A DNA stretch of 64,000 nt from an uncultured Actinomycetota bacterium (GCA_963749905.1 CAVVOF010000003.1:980235-1044234); one strand, 5' to 3'. Numbered from the stretch's first letter, positions 7,514 through 49,100 are shown. Program-made: numbers and translations. The notes: a model not told the origin generated them from the sequence alone.

Positions 7514-8657
7514 ATGCATGTCGGCATCGACATCGAGCAGTTCGTCCGCGACCCCTATGGCTCGGGCATCCAACGGGTGCTCCAGTACCTGGCCCTCGAG
7601 TGGCCGGCCGGCGACGTGCAGGCGGACTTCGTCGTACCCCTCGGCGGCGGCCACGGACTGCTCACGCCGGCTCAGGCCGGTGAGCTGCTGACCCTGCCCT
7701 TCCTGCCCCGCGCCCCAGACACCGACCTGCGCCAGCTCGTCGATGCCTGGCTCGCCGAGACTGCCCCCATCCGGGTGAAGGACGGCGACCTGCTGTCCAT
7801 CTACGACGCCTGGCTGCTCCCGGAGGTGTCCTACCTGCCAAGCGTGCTGCGCAGGTTCGAGCTGTTCGCGAGGTGCGTTCCCACGACGATGGTCGGCTAC
7901 GACACCCTGCCGATGATCGAGCCGGCCAACTACCGGTTCCGGCCGGGGGCCAGTGCCTGGGTCAGCGAGTACTTCCGGCAGCTGGCCACCGCCGACGCGG
8001 TCGTGTGCATCAGCGCCTACGCCCGCGACAGCATCCTCGGCCGCCTGCGGCGCGACCCGGCTATGGCCGATCACCGTCGCGCATCCCGGGGGCGACCACC
8101 TGCCGGTGCTGGCCCCGGACCCGCCGGACCGGCCCGTCTTCGCCCGTCTGGGCACCCTGGAGGCCCGAAAGCGCCCGGTCGAGATCGCCGAGGCCTTCCG
8201 CGAGGCCGTGGACGCTACGGGCCTGCAGGCGGAACTGGTGTTCATCGGGGGTGCGTCCGCGTCCGATGAGGGGATCAACCGGGCAATACGGACACAAGTG
8301 GACCTCGGCGGCGTGCGCTGGGTGCAGGGAGCGTCCGACACCGAGGTGCGCGACCTCATCCACGGATCGAGTGCCTTCCTGTCCATCGGGGTGGAGGGCT
8401 ACGGGATCCCGGTTCTCGAGGCCATCCGGCTGGGCACGCCGGTCCTCTTCGACGGAGTGCAGCCGGCCGGGGAGCTGATGGCGGGCCGCGGCGCGCGCCG
8501 TATCCGCGCGATGACGCACGACGAGTTGGTGGCGGAGTTCGGGGCCTGGAGCCAGCCGGACTTGCTCGCCACCCTGCGGGAGGAGCTCGACCCGGCGGCG
8601 GTGCCCACCTGGGCGGACTTCGCCGCGGGGGTGGCGGAGGCGGTCGCGTCCGCATGA
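7514..8657 (+). CDS. GT4 glycosyltransferase (frameshift near 8070)
   Basis: MHVGIDIEQFVRDPYGSGIQRV, VGYDTLP, LGTLEARK, EGYGIPVLEA. Confidence 0.85.
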
Positions 8658-8881
8658 GCCCGGGCGTCAGCCAGCTGCCGACCCTCGTCTGCTGGGCCAA
8701 TCCGCAGCACTCCGCCTCGGGATCCGACGTAGGCCTGTTGGACATCCGGGTCTCGCCCGCATGGATCGGCGAGACGGGGATGCCGTTGCCGCTCACTACA
8801 CTGATCGTGGCCATCGCCACCGCCGCCGTCGTCCTGGGAGTCCTCGTGCAGAACCGCCGCACCCGCCGGGCGCTGGCGTGA
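8654..8881 (+). CDS. Small 75-aa hypothetical protein with one C-terminal TM helix
   Basis: ATGA overlap with the upstream gene and GTGA overlap with the downstream gene. Hydrophobic LTTLIVAIATAAVVLGVLV followed by basic RRTRR. Confidence 0.5.
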   Translation: MSPGVSQLPTLVCWANPQHSASGSDVGLLDIRVSPAWIGETGMPLPLTTLIVAIATAAVVLGVLVQNRRTRRALA

Positions 8882-9597
8882 ACCGGGCTCTCGTCGCGAT
8901 CCCCGCATGGAACGAGCAGGGCTCGATCGCGGACGTCATCGCCAAGGTCAGGGAGCATCGTCCGGACGCGGACGTCCTCGTCGTCGACGACGGCTCCTCT
9001 GACGAGACTGCGGCCCGGGCCGAGGCGGCCGGGGCGACGGTGGTGTCGCTGCCGTTCAACGTCGGCGTCGGCGGAGCGATGCGGACGGCGTTCCTGTACG
9101 CCAAGCGGCACGGATACCAGGCGCTCGTCCAGGTGGATGCCGACGGACAGCACGACCCGGCTGACCTCGACCGACTGCTCGACGGGCTGGCCGATGCCGA
9201 CGTCGTGGTGGGCACCCGCTTCCATCCGGACTCGATGTACTTCGTCGGCGGCCCCCGCCGCTGGGCGATGGTGCTGCTGTCGAAGTCGCTCAGTCGCATG
9301 AACGGCAAGCCGATCTCGGACCCGACGTCCGGCTTCCGATCCGCGGGCCCGCGGGCCATCGACCTGTTCGCCGTCGACTACCCCGCCGACTACCTCGGCG
9401 ACACGGTCGGCTCGCTGTCCATCGCCATCCGTCACGGGCTGGTGATCCACGAGACACCGGTGACGATGTACTTCCGGCAGACGGGCCGGCCCAGCAAGAA
9501 CGCTCTGTGGTCGGCGCTCTACCTCGGGCGCGCGACGCTGGCGATCATCGCGACCAGCCTGCAACGCGGCACTCATGTGCGAGGTGACGACTCATGA
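8878..9597 (+). CDS. DPM1-like GT2 polyprenyl-phosphate glycosyltransferase
   Basis: IPAWNEQGSI, VVDDGSSD, NVGVGGA, VQVDADGQHDP, SDPTSGFR. Confidence 0.9.
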   Translation: MNRALVAIPAWNEQGSIADVIAKVREHRPDADVLVVDDGSSDETAARAEAAGATVVSLPFNVGVGGAMRTAFLYAKRHGYQALVQVDADGQHDPADLDRLLDGLADADVVVGTRFHPDSMYFVGGPRRWAMVLLSKSLSRMNGKPISDPTSGFRSAGPRAIDLFAVDYPADYLGDTVGSLSIAIRHGLVIHETPVTMYFRQTGRPSKNALWSALYLGRATLAIIATSLQRGTHVRGDDS

Positions 9598-9950
9598 TCG
9601 CCAACGTCCTCGGCGCCATCGCGTCGATCATCGTCTTCGTCTTCGTGTTCTGGCTCATGCGTCGGGGCGTGCTCCGCGAGAAGTACGCCGTGCTCTGGCT
9701 GCTGTTCAGCGGCTTCGCGCTGTTCTTCTCGGTCGTCCCGGGCGCCCTGCAGTGGGTCAGCGACGCCCTCGGCGTCGAGACGCCGTCGAACCTGCTCTTC
9801 TTCGTCACCATCGTCCTGCTGATCCTGGTGTCGATCCAGGTCAGCTACGAGCTCAGCCGGCACGAGGCTCGCATCCGCAGGCTGGCGGAGGAGATCGCGC
9901 TGCTGGACCGACAGGTGAAGGACCTGAAGGAGCAGCGTGACGGTGAGTGA
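9594..9950 (+). CDS. DUF2304 family small membrane protein
   Basis: LREKYAVLWL, three TM segments, and a C-terminal coiled coil (EARIRRLAEEIALL); coupled to the upstream GT2. Confidence 0.85.
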   Translation: MIANVLGAIASIIVFVFVFWLMRRGVLREKYAVLWLLFSGFALFFSVVPGALQWVSDALGVETPSNLLFFVTIVLLILVSIQVSYELSRHEARIRRLAEEIALLDRQVKDLKEQRDGE

Positions 9951-10864
9951 GCCGGTGCTGGTGATGGCCTTCAACCGGCCGGACCACCTGGCCGTGCTCC
10001 TCCGGCGCCTGCGCGAGGTGCAGCCGGAGCGGCTCTACGTGGCGATCGACGGGGCTCGTACTGGTCGCGAGGGCGAACAGGAGCGGGTGCAGCAATGCCG
10101 CGACCTGGTGGCAACCGTCGACTGGCCCTGCGACGTGCACACGCTGTTCCAGGACTCGAATCTCGGTTGCGGCCTCGGGGTGAGCACCGCCATCTCCTGG
10201 TTCTTCGCCAACGAGGAGCGGGGCATCATCCTCGAGGACGACATCATCCCCGACCCTTCCTTCTTCCCCTACTGCGCGGAGTTGCTCGAGCGCTACGAGG
10301 ACGAATGAGCGGGTGTTCGCCATCACCGGCTGCAACTTCGTGCCCCCCGAGCACCAGTCGCGGCCCGGCGCTGCCGTACCGGTTCAGCCAGGTGCCGCAC
10401 ATCTGGGGCTGGGCGACGTGGCGGCGATCGTGGCGCCAGCACCAGCTCGACATCGCCGACTGGCGCGGGCACGCTCCCTCTGCACCGGCTCTGGAGCCGC
10501 GTCGGGCTACTCCGTCGCCGAGCACCGTCTACTGGACCAGCACCTTCGAGCTGCTCGCGCGCAAGGAAGTCGATACGTGGGACGGCCAGCTGGTGCTCGC
10601 AGCCATGGCTCGGGACCGCTGACGGCGACCAGCAACGTCAACCTCATCGAGAACATCGGCTTCGGCGACGTCGGCCACGCACACCGTCGAGGATCGAGAC
10701 GACCTGCAGCCGATCGGCGCAATGCGGTTCCCCCTCGCGGACGTCCCGGTCGAGCACGACGTGAAGGCGGACGCGTGGACGCGTCAGCACCACTTCCGGG
10801 CCACCTGGCGAGGCATGCTCGGGCAGGCCGATAGATTCCTGAGGCAGCGACGAGGGAGAGCATC

Positions 10865-15720: not shown

Positions 15721-17268
15721 GTGGAACCCGCCATGGAGTCCTCCACAAACCCGCATGACGAGCGAGTCGAACGCTCCTCGTTGGCCGACTACCTGAGGAC
15801 GAGCCTCGGTCCACTCGAGAGTGCCCACGTGCTGCTCACGGGCTTCAATCACTGGGCCTTCGCGATGGCAGCGGTGGCGGAGACCGCGCTCTGCCTGAAG
15901 GAGATGGGCTCCGCGGTCAGCCTGGCGCTGTGGTCGGACCGCACGCCGATGCGGGACGAGGGTTGGGAGGCCGGCCGCCGCGTGAGCCGGGTCCTCGCCG
16001 ACTCGCTCCCCGGACGCGAACCTCGAACTTGGTCTGATCAAGTCGGGGATATCCCCGGCCGCGTTCGCGGACCCGCCCATCCGTGGGTGGCGGCCGGTCG
16101 AGCCGATCGTGATTCCCCGGCGCTTGAACCGAAGCGAGATCCGGGCGCTCACCTATCGGGGCACTCCGATGGGCAAGGCCATCCTCCAAGTGCATCCAGA
16201 CCGGAATACGCCCATCACCGATGACCACTACTGGCCTCGTCGCTGGATCACCAACGCCGCACGCTCGTATGCGTTCGTGCTCGACCAGACGCTCGCCCTG
16301 GTCAAGCAGAGGGGCATCACCGCGGCACTGGCCTTCAACGGGAGGTTCCTGCATGACCGGGCGGTAGCCGAGGCCGCAGCCCTCGCCGGGATCCCGCTGC
16401 TGTCGACGGACCTTGGCGGCACCGACGCCGACTTCGAGTTGACTGTCGAGCCGACTCACGATTGGGCCGCATTCCAGCGCCGCATCCTCGAGCTTGTACG
16501 CGGCTTGGGATCCGAGCGATCGGGATGCCGTTGGCAGCGGTTGGTTCCTCGACCGGGTGGAGCACCGCGATCCCCAGAACTCGCTGTTCGTCGAGGCGCA
16601 GCGCCGAGGTGAGATGCCCGAGATCCCTCAGGATCGGAAGGTCGTGGTCGTTCTTCAGCTCGTCCGGCGACGAGATGGCCGAACTGGACTTCGACTGGAA
16701 GCAGTACTTCGGTGGTCAGGGCGCTGCCCTGAAGGCTCTTGCGGAGGCCTGCCGCGAGCGCCCAGACACGTTCTTGGTGGTCCGATCACACCCGCACAAG
16801 CGCATCAAGCCCGCGCGCGACGTCGAGGACTGGATGGCGGACGTCGCGGCGGCTGCCCCGGACATGCACCTCGACCCGTTCTCCCCGATCGACTCCTACA
16901 CACTCATGCGCAGGGCGGATGTCGTCGTCACCTACGGGTCAACGACGGGCATCGAGGCTGCCTTCGCTCGCAAGCCGGTGATCGTCATGGGGCCGTCGGC
17001 GTACGGCGAACTGGGCTGCGTGACGGTCGTGCAATCCGAGGAGCAGCTGAAGGCGGCCTTGGATGATCCGGAACCGGGGGACTGGTCTGGAGCGGTGGCT
17101 TTCGGATTGATGATGCGCAAGCGCGGGTTCCGGGTGCGGCACATCGAGAGGCTCGAGGGCGGTGGCTACCGCGTCGGAGGCGTCACCCTAGGCGAGGTCC
17201 GTCCCGCGGCCCGCCATGCCAGTCACCTGCTGGACAGGACGCGGCGGGCCTATCTGAGGAGGAAATGA
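15721..17268 (+). CDS. KpsS/KpsC-like capsule-synthesis family protein, candidate ulosonic-acid transferase (frameshifts)
   Basis: FNGRF, FFSSSGDE, LVVRSHPH, IDSYTLMRRADVVVTYGSTTGIEAA..KPVIV. Confidence 0.7.
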
Positions 17269-17940
17269 GCACGATGGTGGACGTCCGGACGACAGCGCGT
17301 CGAGTTCCCTTCAGCACCGAGATATACGAGTACGTGACGACACGTTCCAGGATGCGCCGGTCCAGGAGCGTGGCCCGAAGAATCCTCGAGTCAGGTCGGG
17401 AGATCAAACTCGACCTCGGTGGAGGGTATGCACCGGGACGCAACGGCTGGGTCAACGTCGACGTGTCGAACGAGGCGGACTTGTTCTGGGACCTTCGCTA
17501 CGGAATCCCCTTCCCGGACGGCACCGTCGACCGGCTGTACTCGAGCCACCTGTTCGAGCACCTGACGTACGAGCAGGGCCGGGCCCTGCTCGATGAGTGC
17601 ATGCGGGTCCTGAAGCCCGGCGGGTCGGTCTCGATCGTCGTGCCGAACGCCCGGATGTTCATCGAGGCCTACCTGTCCGGACGGCCGCTGCCTGCCGAGT
17701 ACCTCGGATGGGAGCCGGCGAACAATCACACGACCGCCATTGACGCGGTCAACTATGTCGCCTACATGGCTGGCGAGCACAAGTACATGTTCGACCAGGA
17801 GAACCTCCTGCACGTCCTCACTGCACGAGGCTTCGAACGGGTCGAGCGGCGGGACTTCGATCCCGGAGACGGATCTGCAGGAGCGGGACTTCGAGAGCAT
17901 CTACGCGATCGGCTACAAGCCGGACCGCGTCAGCCGATGA
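17265..17940 (+). CDS. Class I SAM-dependent methyltransferase (frameshift near the end)
   Basis: KLDLGGGY, WVNVD, DLRYGIPFPDGTVD, SHLFEHL, RVLKPGG, HKYMFD. Confidence 0.85.
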
Positions 17941-19023
17941 GGAGTTGCCAGGTCGTGACGGCCTGGTCCACGACGTTGGCATAGACGACGTCGGATCCCC
18001 ATAGGGTCACCACCGGTGCGAGCCAGACGAGGGTTTCGACAAGTCGAAGCTCGTTCGTCTGCGCGTCCCTCCGGTGCAAGTAGGCCACCGTCAGCAGGAG
18101 CAGGGCAGGTGCCATCACCAGAACGAACACGCGGGGGCGGTCACCGCTGAGCACCGTGGCGGCGACGCCGACCACGAAGGCGCCCGCGAGAACCAGTCGG
18201 GCACGGGGCAGTGGCTGAGAAAGCCAGAAGGCGACGACGATCGCCCACGACCCGGCGAACAGTGACCACAGCAGCATCGGCCCGGTGTTGATGGCCACCT
18301 TCGTCCAGTCGGCGACATAGGGGCCGAGCCAGGCAGTTCGACCGGACGTCGCCGAGCCCGCCGTGATCAGGATGAGCAGCAGCAGCACCTTGCCGGCGAG
18401 GATGCCGATCACACCCCAGCCGGGGTTGGTGTCGCGCAGCCGCCCGGGGAGTTCTGGACGCACGCCGATCCAGACCAGGACGAGGGCCGCCATCCCGAGC
18501 AGGCCGTGCTCGAGGTGCTGAAAGCCGAGGAGTGCCCCGGAGACGGCGAGCAACGCCCTGGACCCGGACAGCCACGAGAACAGGACGACCGCCCAGGCCA
18601 GCATCGTCCAGGGGTCATAGAAGCCGAGCCAGGTGGCCAGCACGCCGATCACCGGGGACAGGACAGCCAGGCGGGCAGCCCGCCAGCGCTGCGTTCTCGG
18701 TGCATTGAGCCACGCCCACGCTCCCCAGCAGCCGGCAACGGCTGCCGATTGCGGCCACGCTCAGCCAGAGGTATGCAGATGGGGATCCGGCGCCGACGAG
18801 CCTGGCGAGCAGTAGCCCGAGTGGGCTGTCGGTGTAGAAGGCCTCGAACTCTCCTGGCAACCGCTGGGGCCAGGCCTGTGCGGCCGCGAGGAGTGCGTCC
18901 AGTGAGGGCGTGACGGTCGGGCCGGCACGCAGGATCGACCAGCCGAGGGCGAGCAACGACGCTGAGGACAGCGATCAGCGAGACCGAGCGGCGGGCACTC
19001 CTAGGCTCGGTCGGGAGGCTCAC
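17930..19023 (-). CDS. Polytopic membrane protein of unknown function (frameshifts)
   Basis: More than 8 hydrophobic segments, including YTDSPLG, FYDPWT, FQHLEHG and GDRPRVF. GTG at 19023 has TAAAGT 7 nt upstream. Confidence 0.55.
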
Positions 19024-19103: not shown

Positions 19104-20800
19104 ATGCCTGAACGGCGGTGGTCCGAGACGGCCCTCGCGTGCGGCTCGATCGGTGCATCTCCCCGCAGCACTTGCCGCCGGTGTCGGACTGCTGACAATC
19201 GCGCTGACCTACGGGGTCTTCGCCGGGTGGGCGACGCTAGGGGAGGGATCGGACCTCGCGACCTACCTGCTTCCTGTGCGAGGGCTCCTTGATGGCGGGC
19301 CGGTCCTCTACGTCGACCTCTTCGACATCAAGCCACCGTTGACGTATGCCTTGCTGGTCCCCGTGGTCGCGCTCACGGGCGGTGCGGCTCGTGCTGGCTC
19401 TGGGCTGCCTACGCCCTGCTCTTGGCGGGCATGCTGGCGGGGACGTGGCTGCTGCTGCGAAGCGTGTTGCCACCGTGGCCCAGCCTGGTGCCGTTCGTGT
19501 CAGCCTGCATGATCGGCGTCTACTTCAGCCTGTTCAACGAGTTGTTCTTCGCCACCGAGGTGCTCGGCATCGTGCTCGTCCTGCGGCGCTCTCGTACTGG
19601 TCATCCGACGTGGACCCGGCACAGTTTCGCTCCTGCGTCGCGGGCGCCCTGACGGGGTCGGCGGGACAGGTGAAGGAGGTCTTCATCTTCTCCGTTCTCG
19701 CCGCTCGTGCCCTTGGCCGTTCGCCATCGCCGGGGTCCGTGGATTGGTCTGGCATGGCTTGTCGGCGGTGCCTTCACGGCGCCTCGTGGCCAGCGTGGTC
19801 GTCCTCCTCATGTGGGGTGCCAGGTGCTCTGCCGGGATACCTCGAGGTGCTCGGGTTCAAGCGGGGGCGGTTCCCTGCCCCGACGCCCGGTGAGGTGGTG
19901 ACTCGACTCCTGTCATATGGGTGGGAGCTCATGCCATTGGCTGCCCCTTGCCGGGGCCCTGCTCGCCGTGTTGGGAACGGTGGCGGCGACGTCGTCGATG
20001 GCTCGGAGGCGTATCACCTCGATCAGCCCGACGTCCGCCGAGGTGGCCCTTGGGTCCTGCCGTTCGTGGTTTCGCGGCGGGTTTCGCCATGGCAGGGATT
20101 CGCCCTTCACGCGTCACTACGCCCTGGCATAGCTGTCGATCCCCCCTCTGGGCTTCCGCAGCTCGGTGCGGGACTGGGCTGCCATGGAGTCTGGCGCGTG
20201 GCGTGCACGCTGTCCCCGATTGTCGGCCCGGTCCTCTCGGCGCTCGTGCCTGATCGGCCTCCTGCTGGCGGTCAGCTCGGTGCTCTGGTTCGGCCAGGTG
20301 CGTCACGGGCTTCTCTCCCGGCGGGCTCGTCGCGCGCGTCGGGGACACTGGAGTCGGCGGGTCGCTGGCGCGCTTCCGTACCTCGTGGTCGGACGTTGAC
20401 CGCCGCCGGTGACTGCATCCAGGTCGCCTACGGATGGTCCGCCAGTGCGTACTACTGGTACGCCGGACCGCGACCCTGTGCTCGCGCTTCTACGTTCCGC
20501 CGCTCGACCTGAGCCCGGATCTGCGGCCGGGAGTACCAGCGGCGCATTATGGATCCGGCGGCCCGGACCGCGCTCATCGTCTACGACCCGGCTCTCGCGG
20601 TCTCGACCACCGTCCCGGCGGAGGAGGGCACTCCGGACGAGGTCATCTTCCCCTTCGCCGCGGTCGTGGCCGCCTGCTATCGAGCCGGTGGTCGGGAACC
20701 GTGCTGTTCTTCCCGTCCGGGGGCGGATGCGGACGGCGACCTCCGCCATGCATCGCCGAGCAGGTGTCCCGGGAGATCCGCAGCCGGCCGCCAGTCCTGA
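19104..20800 (+). CDS. GT-C-like (ArnT/GT39-type) membrane glycosyltransferase (many frameshifts)
   Basis: LYVDLFDIKPP motif after the first TM; QVKEVF; several TMs; C-terminal extracellular domain (QVAYGWSASAYYWY). Confidence 0.6.
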
Positions 20801-20827
20801 CAGGATGGGGTCGAAGGAGGCAGCGAG

Positions 20828-22152
20828 ATGGGTGGAAGAGGACGGTGCGCCCCGTCGAGGGCGGCTTCATGCACGACCTGGCGCGGGACTGTTCCCCATC
20901 ACGCGCAGCATCACCGGCGACGGCGTGCGCGCCAGACGCTGGCGATCCTGGGCGGGACCTGCCCGGCCTCATGATCCACGAGGTGCCCAGCGGCACGCCG
21001 GCCCTCGACTGGACCGTCCCCGACGAGTGGAACATCCGCGCGCGCCTACCTCGAGGGCCCGGCCGGCCGTCGCATCTCGACCTCGCCGACAGCAACCTGC
21101 ACGTGGTCGGCTACTCCGTGCCGGTCGACGCGGGCACTGACCCTCGGAGGAGCTGCAGCCCCACCTGCACTGCGATCGCCGAGCTACCCGACGCGATCCC
21201 GTACGTCACGAGCTACTACAACCCGCACGTGGGGCTTCTGCCTGACCGAGCAGCGTGCGGCAGTCGCTGGAGCCGGGCGAGTACCGCGCCGTCATCGACA
21301 GCACGCTGGAACCCGGCAGCCTGACCTACGCCGACCTGGTCATCCCCGGCGACACCGACCGAGGAGGTGTTCGTCACCACCTACGTCTGCCACCCGTCGC
21401 TGGCGCAACAACGAGCTGTCGGGTCCGGTGGTGGCCACCGCCCTGGCCCGGTGGGTGCTGTCGCTGCCCCGGCGGCGTTACACCTACCGATTCGTGTTCG
21501 CGCCCGAGACCATCGGCGCGCTCACCTACACCAGCCGGCACCTGTGAGCACCTGCGCGAGCACGTGATCGCCGGCTTCAACCTGACGTGCATCGGCGACG
21601 ACGGGCGACTACTCGTACCTGGCTTCCCGGCGGGCGACCTCGAGTTGGATCGCATCGGCACGTCGTGCTGTCGAACTCGGACGCCCGCAGTCGAGTACTC
21701 CTACCTCGACCGCGGAAGCGACGAGCGGCAGTACGGCGCCCCCGGGATCGATCTGCCGATGATCTCGCTCATGCGCACCAAGTACGGGGAGTATCCCGAG
21801 TACCACACGTCGCTCGACGACCTGACGTTCGTCACCCCGACGGGCCTGCAGGGTGGGCTCGACCTCGTCCGCGATTGCATCGAGGCGGTGGAGGTTGAAC
21901 GAGTACTACGAGGCGACGGTGCTGGGCGAGCCACAGTTCGGCCGTCGCGGGCTGTACCACCTCGTGCGCCCGCGGGTGGTGGAGGACGTGGTGTACCTGC
22001 GCAGGAACGTCCTGGCATACGCCGACGGTGAGCACTCGGTGGTCGACATGGCGGTGTTGTTCGGGCTGCCCATCGGGGATGTCGCGGCTGTGGTGGACGA
22101 GTTGACGTCACACGGACTGCTGAGACGAGTCGATAGGGACAGGACGGTGTGA
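20828..22152 (+). CDS. DUF4910 domain protein (M28 peptidase-like with C-terminal HTH; frameshifts)
   Basis: [104 protein letters not shown] before ATG at 20828. Confidence 0.88.
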
Positions 22153-22859
22153 TGGCGGCCGACGCCCTTGCCATCATCCCTGCGCGCGGCGGGTCGCGGC
22201 GGTTTCCCGGAAGAACCTCAGGGAGATGTCCGGCCGGCCGTTGATCGCTTGGGCCATCGAGACGGCCCTTGCTTCGGGGGAGTTCGGGCTGGTCGTGGTG
22301 TCGACAGACGACGATGAGATCGCTGAGGTGGCGCGTGCATCGGGGGCCGACGTACCGTTCGTCCGCCCGAAGGCACTGTCGGGCGATCATGCGACGACGG
22401 GTGCTGTCATGGCGCACGCGGTCGCGTACCTCCAGCGGACGGGCTTCGCGGGCACCGACGTCTGCTGCGTCTACCCGGGGGCGATCTTCGTGGTGCCTGA
22501 CGATCTCGTGGCCAGCCGCAGGATGCTCGACGTCCACCCGCCCGAGGACTATGTGATGGCGGTCGTCGGGTATCCGCATCCGGTGCAGCGTGCGCTTAGG
22601 GTCGACTCCACTGGAGTGGCGCTGCCGGTCAACCCGGAGTTCGTTCGCACGCGCACTCAGGATCTCGAGCCACGTGGCATGACGCGGGGCAGTTCTATTG
22701 GGGTACCGCAGAGCGTGGTCGCAGGATCTGCCGGTGCATGGGAACGCCCGTGCGTATGTCCTCGACGGCCGGCAGGTCGTCGACATCGACTCTGAGGATG
22801 ACTGGAGGCATGCCGAGTGGCTGCATGATCGGATGCTCCGCGAGCCTCCTAAGCCGTGA
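22152..22859 (+). CDS. pseF: Pseudaminic acid cytidylyltransferase (CMP-Pse synthetase; frameshifts)
   Basis: AIIPARGGS, GRPLIAWAI, VVVSTDDDEIA, VPFVRP, CCVYP, RTRTQDLE, DIDSEDDW. TGATG overlap with DUF4910. Confidence 0.85.
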
Positions 22860-23535
22860 GCAGGCGCCTGGTGTCGGGGCCGACGTTGAGCAGGGCATCG
22901 ACTGCGGACAGGTACGGCACGAAAGGGCCGTGGAGCTGCGGGTACTCGGGGTGCGGATAGGAGTGATACTCCACGGTGATCCCGTGGGCGGCGAAGCCAG
23001 TCTCCTGCGAGGTGTACGGACGCGACCCGCCGCGCGCGAGGTAGTGGGAGGCGCCCAGTTCGCGGCATTGGGCAACGGTCAACTCTGTGCGGCGCCCCGT
23101 CGCGCTCAGATCGCTTCCGAGGATGATCCGGGTCGTGATGCCCATCTGTGCAGCCAGCCAGCGGATCGGTACACGCGTTGAACGAGCCGAGCAAGGGCAT
23201 GCCGCTCTTAACGAGATCGGTGAGCCCGGGAAGGTACTGAGCCGCGAACGGCGACTTGCGCGTACGGCGGTCTGCAGTGACTTGGCGTGGGTAGCGCCGA
23301 ACCGGGTCTCGAGGTTGATCTCGGGTGGCGGCGATGGGCCGCTCGCACCGGTCCCTTGCGGATCGGGATCGTCAGCATCAGCTCCCCCTGGGAGGTCTTG
23401 ATCCGGTTCCGCTGCTGCCAGCTGGACTTCTCGTACTGCACGTTGTCGAGCAGCACGAAGACATCGACCCGCGCCATCATGTCGAAGTAGCCCAGCCACG
23501 GAAGATACGGTCGGCTGCATGATTGCCACCTTCAC
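22849..23535 (-). CDS. WbqC family protein (putative glycyl/aminoacyl transferase; frameshifts)
   Basis: VAIMQP..PWLGYFDMMARVDVFVLLDNVQYEKSSWQQRNRIKT, YPHPEYPQLHGPFVPYLSAVDALLNVG. Confidence 0.9.
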   Translation of the reverse strand: MKVAIMQPTVSSVAGLLRHDGAGRCLRAARQRAVREVQLAAAEPDQDLPGGADADDPDPQGTGASGPSPPPEINLETRFGATHAKSLQTAVRASRRSRLSTFPGSPISLRAACPCSARSTRVPIRWLAAQMGITTRIILGSDLSATGRRTELTVAQCRELGASHYLARGGSRPYTSQETGFAAHGITVEYHSYPHPEYPQLHGPFVPYLSAVDALLNVGPDTRRLLTA

Positions 23536-24614
23536 GGCGAACCTCCGTCGCTGGTCTCGAGGCGGGACCCACGGTAGCGCGAGCATCGGCCCAGGCCTGC
23601 TCCCGACCATCCACGAGGCGCGCAGCCGCAGCCCCCATCGAGGTGAGGGCATCGGGGCTGCGGGACAGCGTCGTGAGGGCCTCGTTCCACTCGGAGGCGG
23701 ATATGTCCTGCAGGGCCCCGAGGTGCCGCGTGGCTCCCGCAGCCTGGAAGGAGGCGCAGTCAGGCGCCTGGTTGGGGTGTGTGAGGACGGTGAGGGTGGG
23801 CAGCCCGGCCGCGCACCGCTCCCACTGGGCCCCGCCGGGCGCACCGATGGCCAGGTCCGCAGTCTCGAGCAGGGGAACCATCGTCTCCACGTGGTCGAGG
23901 ACGGTGACCGAGCGAAGCGCCGCGGCCCGCTCGTGGACGGCGGCGCGGTCGGGAAATGCAAGGCCGAGGACGATCGTCGTGTGGCCGATGGGGAGCGCTG
24001 GATCGGCGAGAGCATCGAGGAGCGGCTGCAGGTCGGCGCCTTGCGTGGCTCCGCCGAGGAAACGAGCAGATCGTGCACGCGACCATCGCGAGGCTTCGGG
24101 TGTAGCCACGTCGTCGAACGGATCGAGCGGGCGAACCGAGGGCCGTAGCAGATACAGGGGTGCAGGAGCCACGGCCTGGTCGTCGACAGAGCCGGGATAC
24201 CGATCGGGGATCAGCGTCGATGGTGGGATCGATGAGTACGTCGCATCGTGTGAGCCGGTCAGCGAGGTCGTCGATGACGATACGCATGCTCGTGCAGGCC
24301 GAGACCATCCCTCTCCCACGTGGCGGCACAAGCTCGTAGTGGTCGACCACTGCGAGCGCTATGGGCATCAGGTCCGTGACGGCGGCCAGCGGCCAGCGCG
24401 GGCGTCCGAGGCCTTGGTCCGGCTGGTGGTCGATGACGCGCACGGACCACCCGGAGGTCCTCGACCCGGCGACGAGTGCCTTCGGGCACGGACGTGCACA
24501 CCAGGGCGACCTGGCCACTGGTGGGCTGGAGGCGCAGCTGAGAAGTGCCGAGCACCGGACCACGTGCCCGGTCCCGATCGTCTCGTCCGCGTCCGCGCGA
24601 ACGAGCACGCTCAT
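23532..24614 (-). CDS. pseG: UDP-2,4-diacylamido-2,4,6-trideoxy-beta-L-altropyranose hydrolase (frameshifts)
   Basis: VRADADETIGTGHVVRC, VVDHY, VIDDLADR, AIGAPGGAQWERCAAGLP, NQA, VDG; ATGA-coupled to pseI. Confidence 0.85.
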
Positions 24615-25660
24615 GCGAGCAGGTCCCACGCCAAGGGGGTGCCGCGCTCGACGTCGCGCGCCAGAGTTCGGCCGATGACGTCGCCCAGGTGCTTGTGGGG
24701 GCAGGCCATAGCCGGGACGGATGGCCCGGACATCGTCGGCCCCGAGCAGGTTCACCAGCTCGCTTGTCGCGGACTATGTATAGGGATCGTCGGTAGATGA
24801 GGGAGGGAACCTCCTCGGGCGCCGGTCCGAAGGACACGATGCCTCGTGCCCGCCAGGCCCGGCCCGCCTCCTCGACCATGGCGCGCAGTTCGTCGGGCTC
24901 GAGTGAGAACGCGCTGTCGACCGCACCATCGGCTCGACGCAGCGTGACGTGCTTCTCGATGACAGTCGCGCCCAGTGCCACGCTGGCCACCGGCACCCCG
25001 ATGCCGAGGGTGTGATCGGAGAGGCCGACCTCGCAGCCGAACGCCTCGGCCAGCACGGGGATGGCCGCCAGGTTGCTCGCCTCGGGCGGAGCGGGGTAGG
25101 TACTGGTGCACTTGAGGAGGACGAGCTCGGTGCAGCCAGCGGCGCGTGCTGTCGACACGGCCTCGTCGATCTCGGCGAGGGTGGCCATGCCGGTGGAGAT
25201 GATGACCGGCTTCCCGGTGCGTGCGACTTTCTCGATCAGCGGGAGGTCGGTGTTCTCGAACGAGGCGACCTTGTAGGCCGGGACGTTCAGGGACTCGAGG
25301 AAGTCCACGGCGGACGCGTCGAAGGGGGTGCTGAACGCCGTCAGACCGCGGGCACGCGCCCTGTCGAATATCGCACCGTGCCACTCCCAAGGCGTGTGCG
25401 CCTGTTCGTAGAGGGCATAGAGGTGGGACCCGAACCAGGGGCTCTCAGGCTCGCGGATCACGAATCCGGGCACCGTCGCAGTCCAGAGTCATCGTGTCTG
25501 CCGTGTACGTCTGCAGTTTGATGGCGTCGGCTCCTGCATCCGCCGCAGCGTCGACGATGGCTAGAGCCGTGTCGAGCGAGCCGCCATGGTTGCCCGATAG
25601 CTCAGCGATGACATAGGGGGCGTGCTCCGGGCCGATGTCGCGTCCGTTGATGGTGATCAT
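24611..25660 (-). CDS. pseI: Pseudaminic acid synthase (frameshifts near 25470 and 24760)
   Basis: [84 protein letters not shown]. Confidence 0.93.
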
Positions 25661-25669
25661 GGCACCCGG

Positions 25670-26321
25670 CTAGAGCCGGCCCCAGACAATGACGTCGCGG
25701 TTGTCGATGCGCAGGTCGTGCTGGATGTTCTCGTGCGATTCGAAGAGCACTTGGCACTCGTTCAGGGTGCCGAGTCGGTCCTCGATGAGCTCGCAGCTCG
25801 TCGGGGTCGTAGAAGGTCATGGTTGCCCCCTCCTCCGCGGTCTGCCAGATGTTGATCCGGAACGTGTCCCTCTCGATCGGGTCGCCCTTGCCGTAGCGCC
25901 AGTCGTCACGGGTGCGGAACTTGAAGTAGACGTGTGCGCCGGGTGCGAGCGTCTCCCGCGCCTGGGACAGCAGCTCCTCAAGGTAGTGGCGTTCGAAGTA
26001 GAACAGGGAGCCGTTGCCCACTAGGGCGTCGAACGGTCCGTCCAGCGGTGGCAGGCCTTCGCGCAGGTCTCGCTCGACGAAGGCCGATGTGCCGGGCGGC
26101 TCGAGGTCCCAGTTGGCGCGTGCGTTCTCGAGGGCGGCGGCGTCGATGTCCACGCCGGTGACCCGCCAGCCGTACTCGGCGAACAGGCGGGCATTGTTGC
26201 CGTTTCCGCAGCCCAACTCGAGCAGGGAGCCGGGGGTCTGGTCGAGGCCGAACTTGAAGAAGAACTTGGTCACGTAGACATCGGGGAACAGCATCCCGCG
26301 CCACTCGGGGGCACGCTTCAC
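25670..26321 (-). CDS. Class I SAM-dependent methyltransferase, tandem copy B (frameshift near 25815)
   Basis: LLELGCGNGNNARLF, VTGVD; TAGCAT -10 box 7 nt before GTG at 26321. Confidence 0.85.
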
Positions 26322-26351
26322 GCCCGCGATGCTACCCCCGGCCGACATCAT

Positions 26352-27029
26352 CTAGCGGTCAGCGGCATACCTGCCCCACACCACCACGTCCCTGTTCTCG
26401 ACGTGCACGCCGTGCTGGACGTTGTCATGCCGTTCAAGCAACCGCTGGGTGTCGACGAGTGGCTCGAGGTGCTGCTCCACCAGCTGCTGGATTCCCTCGG
26501 GTGTGTAGAAGGTCATCACGGTTCCGGGCAGCTCTCGCCGGTCTCCACGACGGTGAGTCGGTAGGTGTCCTGCTCGAGCAACTCGCCTTGCCCGTAGCGC
26601 CAGTCGTCGCGTGGTGCGCAGCTTGATATGGATGGGAGCTCCCGGTGCGAGCAGGCGGGCGGACCTGCGTCGAGCAAGCCTCTCGAGGTAGCGACCGTTC
26701 GAAGTACAGCAGCGAACCGTCGGCGACGAAGGCATCGAAGGGGCCGTCCAGCGGTGGCAGGCCGTTCGCGCAGGTCTGCGCTCGACGAACGCCGAGGTGC
26801 CGGGCGGCTCGAGGTCCCAGTTGGCGCGTGCGTTCTCGAGGGCGGCGGCGTCCATGTCCACGCCCGTGACCCGCCAGCCGTACTCGGCGAACAGACGCGC
26901 ATTGTTTCCGTTGCCGCATCCGAGCTCCAGCAGAGCGCCGGGAGTCTTGTCGAGGCCGAACTTGAAGAAGAACTTGGTCACATAGATGTCGGGGAACAGC
27001 ATCCCGCGCCATTCGGGGGCTCGCTTCAC
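26352..27029 (-). CDS. Class I SAM-dependent methyltransferase, tandem copy A (local frameshifts)
   Basis: 80 of the first 84 aa are identical to copy B; TAGCAT -10 box 6 nt before GTG at 27029. Confidence 0.85.
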   Translation of the reverse strand: MKRAPEWRGMLFPDIYVTKFFFKFGLDKTPGALLELGCGNGNNARLFAEYGWRVTGVDMDAAALENARANWDLEPPGTSAFVERRPARTACHRWTAPSMPSSPTVRCCTSNGRYLERLARRRSARLLAPGAPIHIKLRTTRRLALRARRVARAGHLPTHRRGDRRELPGTVMTFYTPEGIQQLVEQHLEPLVDTQRLLERHDNVQHGVHVENRDVVVWGRYAADR

Positions 27030-39075: not shown

Positions 39076-39876
39076 GTGGTGGATCCGAGCAGTGCGCGGC
39101 GGGTGCTGCTCGTCGTCGCCACCCTGGGGCAGCGCACCGCATTCCTGCGCGAGACCCTCGACTCGATCCGGACGCAGGCGGTGCCGGCGGACATCGTCGT
39201 CGTGGCCCCGGAGTCGTCTGAGCCCACTCGGGCACTTGCCGACGAGTTCGGCTGTCTGTTCGTGCCTGATCCGGGCAGCCTCACGTCGGCCATCAACCTG
39301 GGGGTCAGAGCCGGCCTCCGCGGTCACGAGTTCGTCAACTGGCTGAATGACGATGACGTGCTCGAGGCGGGTTCGCTCGCGGCGACGTCAGGGCTGCTGG
39401 ATTCCGATCCGGCAGCAGTGGTCGCATACGGCGCCTGCCGGTACATCGACCCCGAGGGTCGTGAGCTGTGGGTCAGCCGTGCTGGTCCGTGGGCGAACCG
39501 GATCCTCGGGTGGGGACCGGACCTGATACCTCAGCCCGGCATGCTGGTCAGGGCCTCGGCCTGGGTGGACGTTGGCGGGGTGGACGAGTCCTTCCGGTTC
39601 GCGTTCGACCTCGATCTGCTCCTGCGGCTCAGGCGCCTGGGTGCGCTGCGGGACACCGGCGCGGTCGTCTCTGCCTTCCGCTGGCATGAGGACTCGCTGA
39701 CCGTCGGGGACCGCAGCCAGTCCCTCGCCGAGTCTGAGCGAGCGAAGCGCGCCGCTCTCGGCCCGACGGCGCGCCGGCTGGCATGGGTGTGGGAAGGCCC
39801 GGTGCGCGTCGCCACCCGGATGGCCGCCCGGGAAGTCAGTCGCCGCGCCCGACGCGTTGCCCAGGGCCACGGCTAG
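39076..39876 (+). CDS. GT2 glycosyltransferase
   Basis: LVVATLGQR, AINLG, WLNDDDVL, IPQPG, GGVDESFRFAFDLDL; intact. Confidence 0.88.
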   Translation: MVDPSSARRVLLVVATLGQRTAFLRETLDSIRTQAVPADIVVVAPESSEPTRALADEFGCLFVPDPGSLTSAINLGVRAGLRGHEFVNWLNDDDVLEAGSLAATSGLLDSDPAAVVAYGACRYIDPEGRELWVSRAGPWANRILGWGPDLIPQPGMLVRASAWVDVGGVDESFRFAFDLDLLLRLRRLGALRDTGAVVSAFRWHEDSLTVGDRSQSLAESERAKRAALGPTARRLAWVWEGPVRVATRMAAREVSRRARRVAQGHG

Positions 39877-39910
39877 ACTCGGGCGGTCTGTCGGCGGGAA
39901 GGGCGTTCGC

Positions 39911-40894
39911 GTGTCGGAGTTCGATGGCTCGTCCATCCTCATCACCGGTGGCACCGGTTCGTTCGGCAAGGCGTTCCTCGCCGGGATCCTGGCGGCCCAC
40001 GACCCGCATCGGGTGATCGTCTACTCGCGCGATGAACTCAAGCAGTACGAGATGCGCGCCACCTTCGGCGACGATCTTCGCGTGCGATTCTTCATCGGGG
40101 ACATCCGGGACCGGGATCGACTGCGAATGGCCCTCCACGGCGTCGACTACGTCGTGCATGCTGCGGCGCTGAAGCAGGTGGACACCGCGGAGTACAACCC
40201 GATGGAGTTCGTCAAGACGAACATCCTCGGGTCGGAGAACGTCATCATGGCCGCACTCGATGCCGGGGTGAAGAAGGTCGTCGCGCTCTCCACAGACAAG
40301 GCGTCGTCGCCTATCAACCTCTACGGAGCCACGAAGCTGACCGCCGACAAGCTGTTCGTGTCGGCCAACCACTACGGCTCGAGCTACGGGACGACCTTCT
40401 CCGTGGTCCGCTATGGCAACGTCATGGGCAGTCGTGGGTCGGTCATCCCGTACTTCCGCTCCCTGGCGCAGAAGGGGGAGCCCCTGACGATCACGGACGC
40501 CCGAATGACGCGGTTCTGGATCACGCTCCCGCAAGCCGTCGACTTCGTGATGCGCAGCTTCGAGGTGATGGTCGGCGGGGAGCTCTACGTTCCCCGTATC
40601 CCCAGCACGCGGATCATCGACCTTGCGGAGGCCATCGCGCCGGGGTCACCCACGATCGAAACGGGCATTCGCCCCGGGGAGAAACTGCACGAGGAGATGA
40701 TCTCGGTCGAGGATGCCCGTAGGACCATCCGCCAGGACGACCGGTACATCGTTCTGCCGACGTTGGCGGAGTGGAACTTCACGCCGCCAACCGGCGAGGC
40801 AGTTCCGGAGGGCTTCGCGTACGCCTCCGACACCAACGAGCAGTGGCTCGACGTCAGGGAGATCAGGGCGCTGCTGGACCAGCTGGGGCTCTGA
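39911..40894 (+). CDS. pseB: UDP-N-acetylglucosamine 4,6-dehydratase (inverting)
   Basis: ILITGGTGSFG, YSRDELKQY, HAAALKQVDTAEYNP, LSTDKASSPINLYGATKL, VRYGNVMGSRGSV, MTRFWITL, GIRPGEKLHE. Confidence 0.95.
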   Translation: MSEFDGSSILITGGTGSFGKAFLAGILAAHDPHRVIVYSRDELKQYEMRATFGDDLRVRFFIGDIRDRDRLRMALHGVDYVVHAAALKQVDTAEYNPMEFVKTNILGSENVIMAALDAGVKKVVALSTDKASSPINLYGATKLTADKLFVSANHYGSSYGTTFSVVRYGNVMGSRGSVIPYFRSLAQKGEPLTITDARMTRFWITLPQAVDFVMRSFEVMVGGELYVPRIPSTRIIDLAEAIAPGSPTIETGIRPGEKLHEEMISVEDARRTIRQDDRYIVLPTLAEWNFTPPTGEAVPEGFAYASDTNEQWLDVREIRALLDQLGL

Positions 40895-40899: not shown

Positions 40900-42054
40900 T
40901 CAGTTGAGCGCACTGAGCACCGCGTCGATCACCTGGTCGACCTCCGTGTCCGACAGCCTCGTATGCATCGGCAGGGAGATCTCGCGACGGTAGTACTCCT
41001 CTGCGCGCGGGCAGAGCCCTCGCGGATATCGCGAGGAGTCGAACGCCGGATGCCAGTAGGCCGGAATGTAGTTCACCTGGACGCCGATACCAGCATCGCG
41101 AAGGCTGACGAACGCTTCCGTCCGACGATCCTCAGGGACCCGGAGCGGGTAGAGGTGCCACATTGGGTCCACATCGGCCTCGGCGAAGGGGACGCGCACT
41201 CCCGGAAGAGTCACGAAGGCCTCGTCATAGCGTGACTTGATCTCCCCGCGCCTCGCCTTGAAGGAGGCGAGACGGCGCAGCTGGCTGGTGCCGAGGGCAG
41301 CGAGCAGGTCGGGGAGGCGGTAGTTCAGCCCGAACTCGTGTACCTCCTGGTGCCACGGCCCCTCGGTGGTGATGCGGAACTCGGACGGGTCGCGCACGAG
41401 TCCCTGTCGAGCGAATCGACGGGCCCGGTCGAGTAGCGCGGGGTCGCGGGCGAGCACGGCGCCGCCCTCGCCGGTGGTGACATTCTTCGTGGGGAAGAAC
41501 GACAGGGTGGTCAGGTCGGCAAGTGTTCCGACGGGCCGGCCACGGAAGACCGTGCCGATGCTGTGGGCCGCGTCCTCGATGAGCAGCAGCCCGCGCTCGT
41601 CGCACAGCGCCCTGAGCGCGTCCATGTCGGCAGGATGACCGGCGTAGTCGACGGCCGTGATCGCCCGAGTGCGGGGGGTCACCGCGGCGGCGGCGGCGCC
41701 GACATCGAGACACCCCGTGTCCGAGCTGACGTCGGCGAAGACGATGTCCGCCCCCAGGAGCGCGGCGGTGGCCTGGGTTGCCACGAAGGTCAGTGGTGGT
41801 GTGATGACCTCGTCGCCGGGGCCGATGCCCGCAGCCGCGTAGGCCACATGCAGGGCGGCGGTGCCCGACGACACGGCTACGGCCGGGGCGCCGCAGATGG
41901 CGCTGATGGCAGCCTCGAATTCGGCCACGGCAGGTCCGGTGGTGAGCCAGTCGCCCTTCAGGACGGCCTCCACGGCCTCGACGTCTGCGGCGTCGATGTC
42001 ATGACGGCCGTATGGGATCACCGACGTCGCCTCTCGTCGTGGGGATGGGCTCAT
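40900..42054 (-). CDS. pseC: UDP-4-amino-4,6-dideoxy-N-acetyl-beta-L-altrosamine transaminase (DegT/DnrJ family)
   Basis: IPYGRHDID, DWLTTGP, SSGTAALH, IEDAAHS, SFFPTKNVTTGEGG, GLNYRL, QVNYIP, ISLPMH. Start may instead be GTG at 42021. Confidence 0.9.
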   Translation of the reverse strand: MSPSPRREATSVIPYGRHDIDAADVEAVEAVLKGDWLTTGPAVAEFEAAISAICGAPAVAVSSGTAALHVAYAAAGIGPGDEVITPPLTFVATQATAALLGADIVFADVSSDTGCLDVGAAAAAVTPRTRAITAVDYAGHPADMDALRALCDERGLLLIEDAAHSIGTVFRGRPVGTLADLTTLSFFPTKNVTTGEGGAVLARDPALLDRARRFARQGLVRDPSEFRITTEGPWHQEVHEFGLNYRLPDLLAALGTSQLRRLASFKARRGEIKSRYDEAFVTLPGVRVPFAEADVDPMWHLYPLRVPEDRRTEAFVSLRDAGIGVQVNYIPAYWHPAFDSSRYPRGLCPRAEEYYRREISLPMHTRLSDTEVDQVIDAVLSALN

Positions 42055-42130
42055 GCTAGGCCTTCCTCGCCATGCAGCGTCAGCATGCTGTTCGTTGTGG
42101 TCGCGGGTCACGGTCACCTAGCATGCGGTG

Positions 42131-48036: not shown

Positions 48037-49100
48037 CGATGCAGATGCTCCCAGCCGAGCCCGGTGAATGACGGGCCGATGATCGCCTCGCTGTACGCGA
48101 CCCCGATGTGCCCCGCGTTCCACTCAAGGAGCCGGACGTCCTCCTTGGCGTCCACCGTCAGGTCCCACCCGATCAGGCCGAAATGGGGGAACCGCTCGTG
48201 CAGGCCGCGGGCGAGTTCGACGGCCTCGCGATAGCGAGGCAGTCGCCCGCCCGGCACGGTTCTGCCCGTTTCCGGATGCACCGGGCTGGGGAGCCAATCG
48301 TCGCCGTGACCGATCTCGGCCAGACGGCCGTCATCGGAGACGACGGCGACCATGAACTTGCTTCCCCCCCGCACGGCGTCCTGGCCGACGCGTCCGAACT
48401 TCACATTGCCGCAACGCACGGTGACCTCGCCGTCCAGCTCGCGAACGGTGACGATCCGATAGGTGGCGACGGGTCCACTGACTACTGCCTCGAGAGATGC
48501 GTGCGGTCGTATCCGCTCCTGGATCACAGCGTCCCCCAGCGTGTTCGCCTCCGCGCCGCGCAGTTCATCGAGTGACATGCTCCGAACCTGGTAGCCGCGG
48601 TACCCACCGTCTCGCTTGACGATGACAGTGTCGTGGACAGCCGCTATCGCCTCAAGCAGCCTCGTTCGTCCGATCTCCAGGAGATCCCGGTCATACCACC
48701 TGCCCCGGAGGACGTATCCGAGATCGGGGAGCGGAGCGCCCGGCAGCAGTCTGCGCGTCAGCGTCTTCGTGCTCGCCAGGCTCCCCAGGTGACCCGACAT
48801 CGCCGGCCCCACCCACCGGCCCATGTAGGTGGCCGGGATCCAGCCCTCCAGGAACTCCCCTCGCATGGCGGTGTAGACGTAGAGCCAAGGAGCGTGCCAT
48901 CGCGAACCGAGTACGTCCGTCGCGTACTGATCGCACGAGCGGCGCTGCGCGGAGTCCAGGTGGGCGCCCGCGTTGCGGACCGCGTTGTCCAGGGACTCCA
49001 GGGCGTCGATCCGCTGCGCCCGGTATGCCCGTGCGTGCTCGACGGAGGCGGCCAGGCTCTCCCAGCGCGTCGCAGCCCTGCGGGCTAGGTTGCTGACCAC
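48033..49100 (-). CDS. Sugar-transfer-associated ATP-grasp protein
   Basis: VIVKRDGGYRG, VIQERI..H, ATYRIVT, HPETG, IGWDL, LLEWN. Confidence 0.8.
   Translation of the reverse strand: MVSNLARRAATRWESLAASVEHARAYRAQRIDALESLDNAVRNAGAHLDSAQRRSCDQYATDVLGSRWHAPWLYVYTAMRGEFLEGWIPATYMGRWVGPAMSGHLGSLASTKTLTRRLLPGAPLPDLGYVLRGRWYDRDLLEIGRTRLLEAIAAVHDTVIVKRDGGYRGYQVRSMSLDELRGAEANTLGDAVIQERIRPHASLEAVVSGPVATYRIVTVRELDGEVTVRCGNVKFGRVGQDAVRGGSKFMVAVVSDDGRLAEIGHGDDWLPSPVHPETGRTVPGGRLPRYREAVELARGLHERFPHFGLIGWDLTVDAKEDVRLLEWNAGHIGVAYSEAIIGPSFTGLGWEHLHR

Follow-up and report, generated by a model that had tools for sequence, protein, structure and literature searches.

A predicted pseudaminic acid biosynthesis and tailoring module with a WbqC-family gene in the wall-glycopolymer locus of an uncultured actinobacterium

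The DNA analysed here (the window) comprises 64,000 nucleotides (nt) from the genome of an uncultured Actinomycetota bacterium (GCA_963749905.1, CAVVOF010000003.1:980235-1044234), and positions 20,828 to 27,029 of it carry a compact cluster of seven genes related to the synthesis of pseudaminic acid (Pse). We consider it on balance probable that this cluster is a functional module for the biosynthesis and tailoring of cytidine monophosphate (CMP)-activated pseudaminic acid, situated within a wall-glycopolymer locus, in which the WbqC-family protein is an addition to the pathway. Pseudaminic acids are found as decorations of flagella, capsules and wall polymers, and how phages and immune systems recognise them is determined by their N-substituents. 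The product of the module is probably a Pse derivative and not plain Pse5Ac7Ac; a non-canonical product had been suggested in an earlier interpretation of this DNA made without database searches (hereafter, the sequence-only reading), and the accessory genes for DUF4910, WbqC and methyltransferase (MT) proteins do make it likely. The module is nevertheless a variant of a known pathway, the association with nonulosonate loci has already been published for DUF4910 and MT, and a new mechanism cannot be claimed from sequence.

According to the homology of the individual proteins, PseB and PseC would form uridine diphosphate (UDP)-4-amino-4,6-dideoxy-beta-L-AltNAc, and PseG, PseI and PseF would lead from there to a CMP-activated nonulosonate. 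The remaining genes, i.e., the DUF4910 gene coupled to pseF, wbqC coupled to pseG, and the MT gene before pseI, would encode tailoring functions that alter the N-acyl and/or methyl decoration of the sugar. The DUF4910 protein, which is metallohydrolase-like, most likely takes part in an exchange of the N-acyl group, by analogy with the genetics of Cj1295 in Campylobacter jejuni. WbqC would act at the stage of a 4-amino- or 4-acetamido-6-deoxyhexose, next to PseG and PseI, as an additional component and not as a general replacement of PseH. The capping of the C4 amine would most likely be performed by an unlinked or unrecognised acyltransferase, and the KpsS-like protein of the window would probably transfer the finished sugar into the wall polymer.

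The gene content and order reported in the sequence-only reading were borne out by domain scans and by alignments in which frameshifts were allowed (Table 1): the DUF4910 gene and pseF on the plus strand converge on MT1-MT2-pseI-pseG-wbqC on the minus strand. The start/stop overlaps described for pseI-pseG-wbqC are likewise present in the sequence, as ATGA between pseI and pseG and GTGA between pseG and wbqC; a further overlap, TGATG, joins the DUF4910 gene to pseF, and the MT2 stop codon is placed 9 nt ahead of the pseI ATG. The genes pseB and pseC were also found where they had been located, at 39.9-42.1 kb, both of them intact and matching TIGR03589 and TIGR03588, respectively. The score of PseC is slightly below the cut-off of its model, yet the protein is by far the best match for PseC in the genome. 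In the canonical pathway, the series PseB-PseC-PseH-PseG-PseI-PseF has been reconstituted up to CMP-Pse5Ac7Ac (PMC7910423). Like the C. jejuni and Helicobacter pylori systems, the present locus contains PseB, PseC, PseG, PseI and PseF, at or near the NCBIfam equivalog level (in the window or in intact orthologues); unlike them, the window lacks PseH, contains WbqC, DUF4910 and MT (the latter in two copies) as additional components, and has its genes distributed between two blocks 13 kb apart. A genome-wide search revealed single copies of pseC, pseG and pseF in the source genome (labelled G000, the window being on its contig C3). A second NeuB-like synthase occurs at G000:C4:1076555-1078068 (203.7 bits on the PseI model); it is frameshifted and partial at the end of contig C4, and no pseC, pseG or pseF is located near it.

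Table 1. Features of the Pse module and associated genes, with positions counted from the first nucleotide of the window. Identity refers to the corrected window protein and its orthologue on metagenome contig L026.
Feature	Position	Strand	Frameshifts	Identity	Basis or remark
DUF2172/DUF4910/HTH_47 aminopeptidase-like protein (CA_C2195/Cj1295 family)	20828-22152	+	16	85%	Pfam DUF4910 and DUF2172 in two frames
pseF, CMP-pseudaminic acid synthetase	22152-22859	+	3	75%	tblastn and frameshift-aware alignment
wbqC (PF08889)	22849-23535	-	7		two Pfam pieces, 87.7 and 80.3 bits
pseG, UDP-sugar hydrolase	23532-24614	-	9	58%	window fragment matches TIGR03590
pseI, pseudaminic acid synthase	24611-25660	-	3	92%	largest fragment 339-340 bits on TIGR03586
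MT2, class I S-adenosylmethionine (SAM) methyltransferase	25670-26294	-	1	87%	Pfam Methyltransf_25/23/12/11
MT1, lineage-specific tandem paralogue of MT2	26352-27002	-	6
pseB, inverting UDP-GlcNAc 4,6-dehydratase	39857-40894	+	intact		TIGR03589, 486.7 bits (cut-off 407.75)
pseC, aminotransferase	40900-42117	-	intact		TIGR03588, 396.8 bits (cut-off 423.5), whole model covered
KpsS/Capsule_synth-like protein (510 amino acids), candidate pseudaminyl transferase	15733-17268	+	3	80%	L026 protein has Pfam Capsule_synth
u348-type protein (~350-376 amino acids)	17933-18978 (L026: 14508-15554)	-			no Pfam family

Intact versions of the module were identified on four short-read metagenome contigs (L024, L026, L028 and L029), each of which carries a block of MT (208 amino acids), PseI (348), PseG (350-357) and WbqC (221-234). 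On L024, L026 and L028 this block converges on PseF (235-239) and a DUF4910/DUF2172/HTH_47 protein (423-437), and the L029 contig stops at wbqC. No acetyltransferase was found in the flanks read on the four contigs. The L026 proteins score 482 (PseI), 194 (PseG) and 257 (PseF, TIGR03584) bits, all above the NCBIfam cut-offs. L026 is syntenic with positions 13.6-31.6 kb of the window, the genes in common including a family 4 glycosyltransferase (GT4), the KpsS-like protein, further methyltransferases, a GT2 and a 736-residue protein. In the WbqC tree, the five WbqC-type loci to which the window belongs form a single clade with 99% support.

Among the accessory genes, the DUF4910 gene is the one for which the literature offers most. 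The three-domain DUF4910/DUF2172/HTH_47 architecture was recognised by Pfam on the orthologues, and its DUF4910 and DUF2172 portions on fragments of the window itself. The founding member of this architecture is CA_C2195 of Clostridium acetobutylicum (PDB 3K9T), which the 436-residue L026 orthologue matches over 397 residues (E 6.4e-102). The authors of the 2014 structure paper linked the family, which includes Campylobacter homologues, to genes for NeuB, a sugar nucleotidyltransferase, an N-acetyltransferase and a SAM methylase, and suggested that an acyl group is transferred onto, or removed from, an amino sugar (PMC4000134). Like CA_C2195, the orthologue has the three-domain layout and is linked to NeuB, nucleotidyltransferase and methylase genes; unlike the window gene, that of CA_C2195 is adjoined by N-acetyltransferases, an acyl carrier protein (ACP) and an ATP-grasp ligase, and the two proteins differ in one ligand of the zinc site (see below).

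In C. jejuni, Hitchen et al. found Cj1295, an aminopeptidase-like protein of 435 residues whose family includes C. acetobutylicum, to be genetically required for Pse5(2,3-di-O-methylglyceroyl)7Ac on flagellin, and proposed that it removes the N5-acetyl group so that another acyl group can attach (PMC3068675). A C. coli gene is also annotated as DUF4910 (PMC10832277). The DUF4910 family thus already possesses both a crystal structure and a knock-out phenotype, and no other accessory gene of the module has an experimental lead as good as the Cj1295 genetics; this lead concerns N-acyl exchange and not WbqC. Like C. jejuni NCTC 11168 with its Cj1295-dependent Pse, the window contains an aminopeptidase-like protein of ~435 residues from the same named family in a Pse locus; methylation is part of the C. 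jejuni product, and methyltransferases are linked in the window. Unlike the window, in which none was found, C. jejuni NCTC 11168 keeps PseH. To our knowledge, C. jejuni has no WbqC. Neither ACP genes nor FkbH-like genes for the loading of glyceroyl groups were seen in the window.

The two pieces of the window WbqC both exceed the PF08889 cut-off of 21.3 bits several-fold. When stitched, the protein is 83% identical to its closest intact homologue (223 amino acids) and 80% identical to the L024 protein (221 amino acids), and a search with it matched 2115 protein clusters at E<=1e-10, the nearest of which are 77-83% identical and 221-227 residues long. In an alignment of 45 WbqC sequences, 27 columns are invariant, with many Asp, His, Arg, Asn, Tyr and Gln residues; since all 27 are kept in the corrected window protein, WbqC looks like an enzyme. 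The AlphaFold model computed from this alignment is confident, with a predicted local distance difference test score (pLDDT) of 92.6 and a predicted template-modelling score (pTM) of 0.89. A Foldseek comparison of the model with the PDB yielded nothing below E 0.001, the best matches being tyrosyl-tRNA synthetases (E 0.29, TM 0.23-0.28), which are too weak to be of use, and a profile search of PDB sequences gave no match. The idea of a BshC-like or class I tRNA-synthetase-like ligase was therefore dropped. WbqC represents a large family, tightly tied to PseG and PseI, that has no known fold relative.

The family takes its name from the O-antigen cluster of Escherichia coli O121/Shigella dysenteriae 7, from which PF08889 originates. 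Both that locus and the window handle a 4-amino-4,6-dideoxyhexose; unlike the window, E. coli O121 has no nonulosonate. As late as 2017 the WbqC domain was termed functionally uncharacterised (PMC5532660). We found neither a functional study of WbqC nor a usable account of the O121 glycyl transfer in the literature searched, and we could not trace there the premise of the sequence-only reading that a role as glycyl transferases has been proposed for WbqC proteins. In a Bacillota metagenome-assembled genome (MAG; locus L031, 7505-10673), wbqC is flanked by an amidase and a PylC-like ATP-grasp ligase, together with DegT and a PglF-like dehydratase; this locus contains no nonulosonate synthase, so that WbqC also occurs outside Pse pathways.

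The genomic company of WbqC was assessed by scanning one genome per species (185,579 species), which produced 528 WbqC relatives confirmed by tblastn. The best 80 of these were analysed along with five metagenome or NCBI-assembly contigs, four of which entered the resulting table of 84 loci; the gene families of the loci were defined by clustering and named with Pfam. A NeuB-type synthase occurs within 8 kb in 71 of the 84 loci, and 65 of the 71 also contain PseG. About two-thirds of the WbqC+NeuB loci (47 of 71) carry an acetyltransferase, either a PglD-like hexapeptide enzyme of the left-handed beta-helix (LbH) type (36 loci) or a GCN5-related N-acetyltransferase (GNAT; 11 loci), and none is recognisable in the other 24. 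When only loci readable for at least 8 kb on both sides are considered (n = 49), 28 have LbH, 8 have GNAT and 13 have neither, so that an acetyltransferase is present in 36. All but one of the 36 LbH loci also encode a 305-residue BNR/GH32N-like protein just upstream of wbqC, and in ten of the 11 GNAT loci, all ten being Acidobacteriota operons, a PseH-like GNAT, standing alone or fused to the C-terminus of PseG, is found directly upstream of wbqC. DUF4910 occurs in seven of the 71 loci, four of which also have an acetyltransferase.

On the WbqC tree, the acetyltransferase-less state requires 13 changes, and loci in this state are interspersed among LbH and GNAT loci; nearly identical WbqC proteins stand beside a PseG-GNAT fusion in some genomes and beside plain PseG in others. 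A Pfam scan of 74 unannotated open reading frames (ORFs) from 19 of 21 loci without acetyltransferase (the other two had no eligible ORF) showed two Acetyltransf_6 matches as the only acyltransferases among the 25 commonest of 84 families, and no hexapeptide or formyl transferase among those 25. Because WbqC usually coexists with an N-acetyltransferase, a general role as substitute for PseH is hard to uphold, and the expectation that it would stand in for PseH across Pse loci was not borne out. Judged by its neighbourhoods, WbqC is a widespread companion of PseG and PseI and more likely provides an extra tailoring step than a replacement.

Two arrangements recur among these loci. The LbH enzyme and the 305-residue protein (with faint GH32N/BNR similarity) form a cassette directly upstream of wbqC in 35 loci of many phyla (L033-L112; e.g., L058 7314-9705 and L030 7385-9702), the two being found together in 35 of 37 cases. 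In the Acidobacteriota, PseG is fused to, or precedes, a GNAT, followed by wbqC and neuB (L081, L100, L103, L108, L111 at ~8496-9986, L064, L086, L090 and L092), and in sister genomes (L069, L083, L070, L082 and L078) plain PseG is followed directly by wbqC.

The search for PseH in the source genome relied on several models. TIGR03585 had no match in the window and, elsewhere in the genome, only four weak matches to generic GNATs (E ~0.003-0.008), none at E<=1e-5; this model is insensitive and misses the in-locus GNATs of the control genomes. A hidden Markov model (HMM) of the GNATs that stand beside PseI or PseC in relatives matched nothing among the six-frame pieces of the window and only generic GNATs on other contigs, and HMMs of PseH-like GNATs and PglD-like LbH enzymes matched nothing in all six-frame pieces of the window. 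The claim of the sequence-only reading that the 64 kb contain neither a GNAT-type PseH nor a hexapeptide acetyltransferase thus held, and the genome as a whole yielded no recognisable pseH, an absence as firm as can be expected of an incomplete and error-laden MAG, and one which the orthologous contigs support. An unlinked PseH was also sought, with TIGR03585 and subject to the same insensitivity, in the genomes whose WbqC loci lack an acetyltransferase.

In this lineage, PseH and WbqC are cleanly swapped. Seven relatives with a PseI above the cut-off all have a GNAT beside PseC or PseI, and none of them has WbqC; four further actinobacterial Pse loci with readable flanks contain a GNAT in three cases (10 of 11 in total), whereas all five WbqC-type loci in the clade of the window lack one. 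A 44-kb contig of a same-genus MAG labelled Ca. Nanopelagicales (G011:C156, comprising L023, L120 and L121) is syntenic with the glycan locus of the window; it encodes PseG-PseC, PseI, a PseH-like GNAT, DUF4910 (70% identical), PseB and PseF, and has neither WbqC nor MT. Since the five WbqC-type loci form one clade, the swap counts as one evolutionary event and not as statistics; in the small sample available, acetyltransferase-less loci make up 13 of the 49 WbqC loci versus 1 of the 11 other actinobacterial Pse loci, a difference that is not significant. The lineage thereby offers a PseH-type and a WbqC+MT-type version of one syntenic glycan locus, with intact orthologues for expression, and the role of WbqC is therefore directly testable.

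The strongest competitor of the proposed add-on role is that, in this clade, WbqC takes over from PseH and acylates the C4 amine, the added group being glycine, another aminoacyl or an acyl group, and that the MTs and/or DUF4910 then modify this substituent, giving a new N7-substituted Pse. We regard this as unlikely. Its appeal lies in the lack of a PseH-like GNAT or LbH enzyme in the window, on the four orthologous contigs and, recognisably, in the genome, in the presence of PseH without WbqC and MT in the syntenic G011 locus, and in the GNAT carried by ten of the 11 other actinobacterial Pse loci. The occurrence of WbqC with a 4,6-dehydratase and DegT in loci without a nonulosonate synthase, once beside an ATP-grasp ligase, would fit a 4-amino-6-deoxy sugar as its substrate, and E. 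coli O121 does have an N-acetylglycyl amide (PMC7685785). These points are countered by the 47 of 71 loci in which an acetyltransferase accompanies WbqC, ten Acidobacteriota operons with a PseH-like GNAT directly upstream among them, by the lack of a separate WbqC subfamily for acetyltransferase-less loci, and by the single evolutionary event behind the clade pattern. Moreover, the 221-residue WbqC has no recognisable nucleotide-binding or acyl-CoA-binding signature and no structural neighbour, and no glycine-activating gene is linked to it. Of the replacement proposed in the sequence-only reading, the alternation of PseH with WbqC+MT stands for this lineage, as G011 shows; it finds no support across the family, in which acetyltransferase and WbqC coexist and the state without acetyltransferase is scattered over the tree. 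Nothing points to glycine as the group added. A broader form of the idea for this clade, in which the ~220-residue WbqC would represent a novel type of enzyme, acylating or otherwise capping the C4 amine of the UDP-sugar, and, together with the paired MTs and the Cj1295-like protein, would give Pse with a non-acetyl, methylated N-substituent, appears to us similarly improbable; if true, the alternation between syntenic loci of one genus would be the footprint of PseH replacement.

Several points weigh against the reading of a functional tailoring module with WbqC as an addition. One step of the pathway is a gap, as no acyltransferase for the C4 amine was identified in the window, the genome or the orthologous contigs. 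In this genus, a locus seems to have either the PseH GNAT or WbqC+MT, which fits the earlier idea of replacement better, and the 13 fully readable WbqC loci without a recognisable acetyltransferase come from seven phyla. For WbqC and MT, the tailoring roles are putative. In the DUF4910 protein, both His residues of the CA_C2195 zinc site (His189-Asp195-His324) are kept, but Asp195 is replaced by Asn, followed by Glu, in this clade, and the presumed homology of the window DUF4910 to Cj1295 derives from statements in the literature.

The two methyltransferases of the window share 69% identity at the protein level and 78% at the DNA level. In related loci a single MT stands before pseI (MT208 on L026); MT2 is orthologous to it, and MT1 is the extra paralogue. 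Two independent short-read contigs cross the junction of MT2 and MT1, and one of these aligns without any mismatch or gap; an assembly duplication was rejected on account of these contigs and the low DNA identity, and the twin arrangement seen in the sequence-only reading is genuine. MT1, MT2 and the L026 MT do not match TIGR03587, the model of Pse-associated methylases, and show generic class I methyltransferase matches only. An uncharacterised methyltransferase conserved next to pseF was reported in a 2026 survey of Clostridium (PMC13317340). An MT is present in 43 of the 71 WbqC+NeuB loci. Its presence shows no association with the absence of an acetyltransferase (71 loci; odds ratio 1.1, p = 1), and a trade-off between the two was rejected for that reason.

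The MTs might also N-methylate the C4 amine directly, like the sugar N,N-dimethyltransferases TylM1 and DesVI, in which case no acyltransferase would be needed and C7 of the product would bear a methylamino or dimethylamino group. In all members of the clade, a small class I SAM methyltransferase does stand directly before pseI; it is duplicated in the window and absent in G011, where PseH is present, and adjacent MT pairs recur in other WbqC loci (e.g., L036, L088 and L102). We nonetheless deem this quite improbable, in view of the lack of the trade-off just mentioned and of any specific match to models of characterised sugar N-methyltransferases; in addition, PseG and PseI have the scores of ordinary equivalogs, suggesting that their substrate is the usual diacetamido one.

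As it stands in the window, the module is broken by 45 frameshifts of +1 or -1 in 6.2 kb, mostly one extra base, which affect all seven genes and were called by aligning the intact L026 proteins to the window with frameshifts allowed. Raw scans of long ORFs with Pfam and NCBIfam accordingly give fragments, i.e., DUF2172 and DUF4910 in different frames, the C-terminal half of WbqC, NeuB/PseI from model position 53 onward, PseG positions 1-133, and one full and one truncated methyltransferase; in a six-frame reading each gene carries on in another frame, and profile searches of the genome split PseI and WbqC into two pieces each. Frameshifts also occur outside the module (22 in the upstream membrane protein, 0-6 in the flanking genes), and the genes at 27.8-35.4 kb are likewise frameshifted. 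Positions 19195-24614 are an error hot spot with 7-14 frameshifts per kb versus 0-3 per kb in adjoining genes, and pseB, pseC, the GT4 gene and an FkbM gene are free of them.

Publicly available short-read assemblies from nearly identical strains clarified the origin of the frameshifts. One contig of 803 nt is 99.4% identical to the window, and its only differences are one base fewer at 25471 and an additional GG after 25788, exactly the two frameshift sites predicted in that interval. Two other short-read runs lack 5 nt at 26528-26533, the site of two further predicted frameshifts, and indels at 21077, 21172, 21226, 23325, 23345, 23508 and 26692 are common to up to four runs; that at 23508 restores the frame and the WbqC motif MQPTYLPW. 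Seven of the 12 listed short-read indels are located within 5 nt of predicted frameshift sites. After correction, the module genes contain no in-frame stops and are 58-92% identical to their L026 orthologues (65-92% for six of the seven). The frameshifts are consensus errors of a poorly polished, long-read-type assembly and not gene decay; the module looks broken because the stretch is full of single-base consensus errors. A decaying pseudogene cluster without a product, which the 45 frameshifts in seven genes might suggest, is very improbable and was rejected, given that the 99%-identical short-read contigs lack the indels at exactly the predicted sites, that no stops remain after correction at such levels of identity, and that the errors are mostly extra bases which strike neighbouring genes too. 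Gene calls in the source MAG require frameshift-aware handling, and the window sequence is too error-laden for use as it stands.

The source MAG consists of 7 contigs with a total of 3.28 Mb and is estimated to be ~92% complete. Its EF-Tu shares 94-97% identity with proteins from MAGs labelled Ca. Nanopelagicales or Actinomycetota, and the earlier designation of the host as an actinobacterium therefore stands.

The wider surroundings of the module are also devoted to glycans. The KpsS-like protein shows weak matches to the BFO_1060 glycosyltransferase and surf_polysacc models and is presumed to belong to the module. Further glycan genes in the window code for a PhyH dioxygenase, an ABC exporter, a WecA-like initiating transferase, a GT61, an ATP-grasp protein and a pyruvyl transferase, on which grounds the ~45-kb region is read as a wall-glycopolymer locus. 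The ORF at 49823-51247 has no NCBIfam match. The u348-type protein has only 45 homologues in 5.8 billion sequences, always in this glycan locus; it was rejected as a candidate acyltransferase, being lineage-restricted, tryptophan-rich and apparently an integral membrane protein, and it is present in G011 too. Beside the GT61 gene, at a distance of 21 kb from the Pse module, positions 48033-49355 of the minus strand encode an ATP-grasp protein of the sugar-transfer-associated type (PF14397), which could add an amino acid to a sugar.

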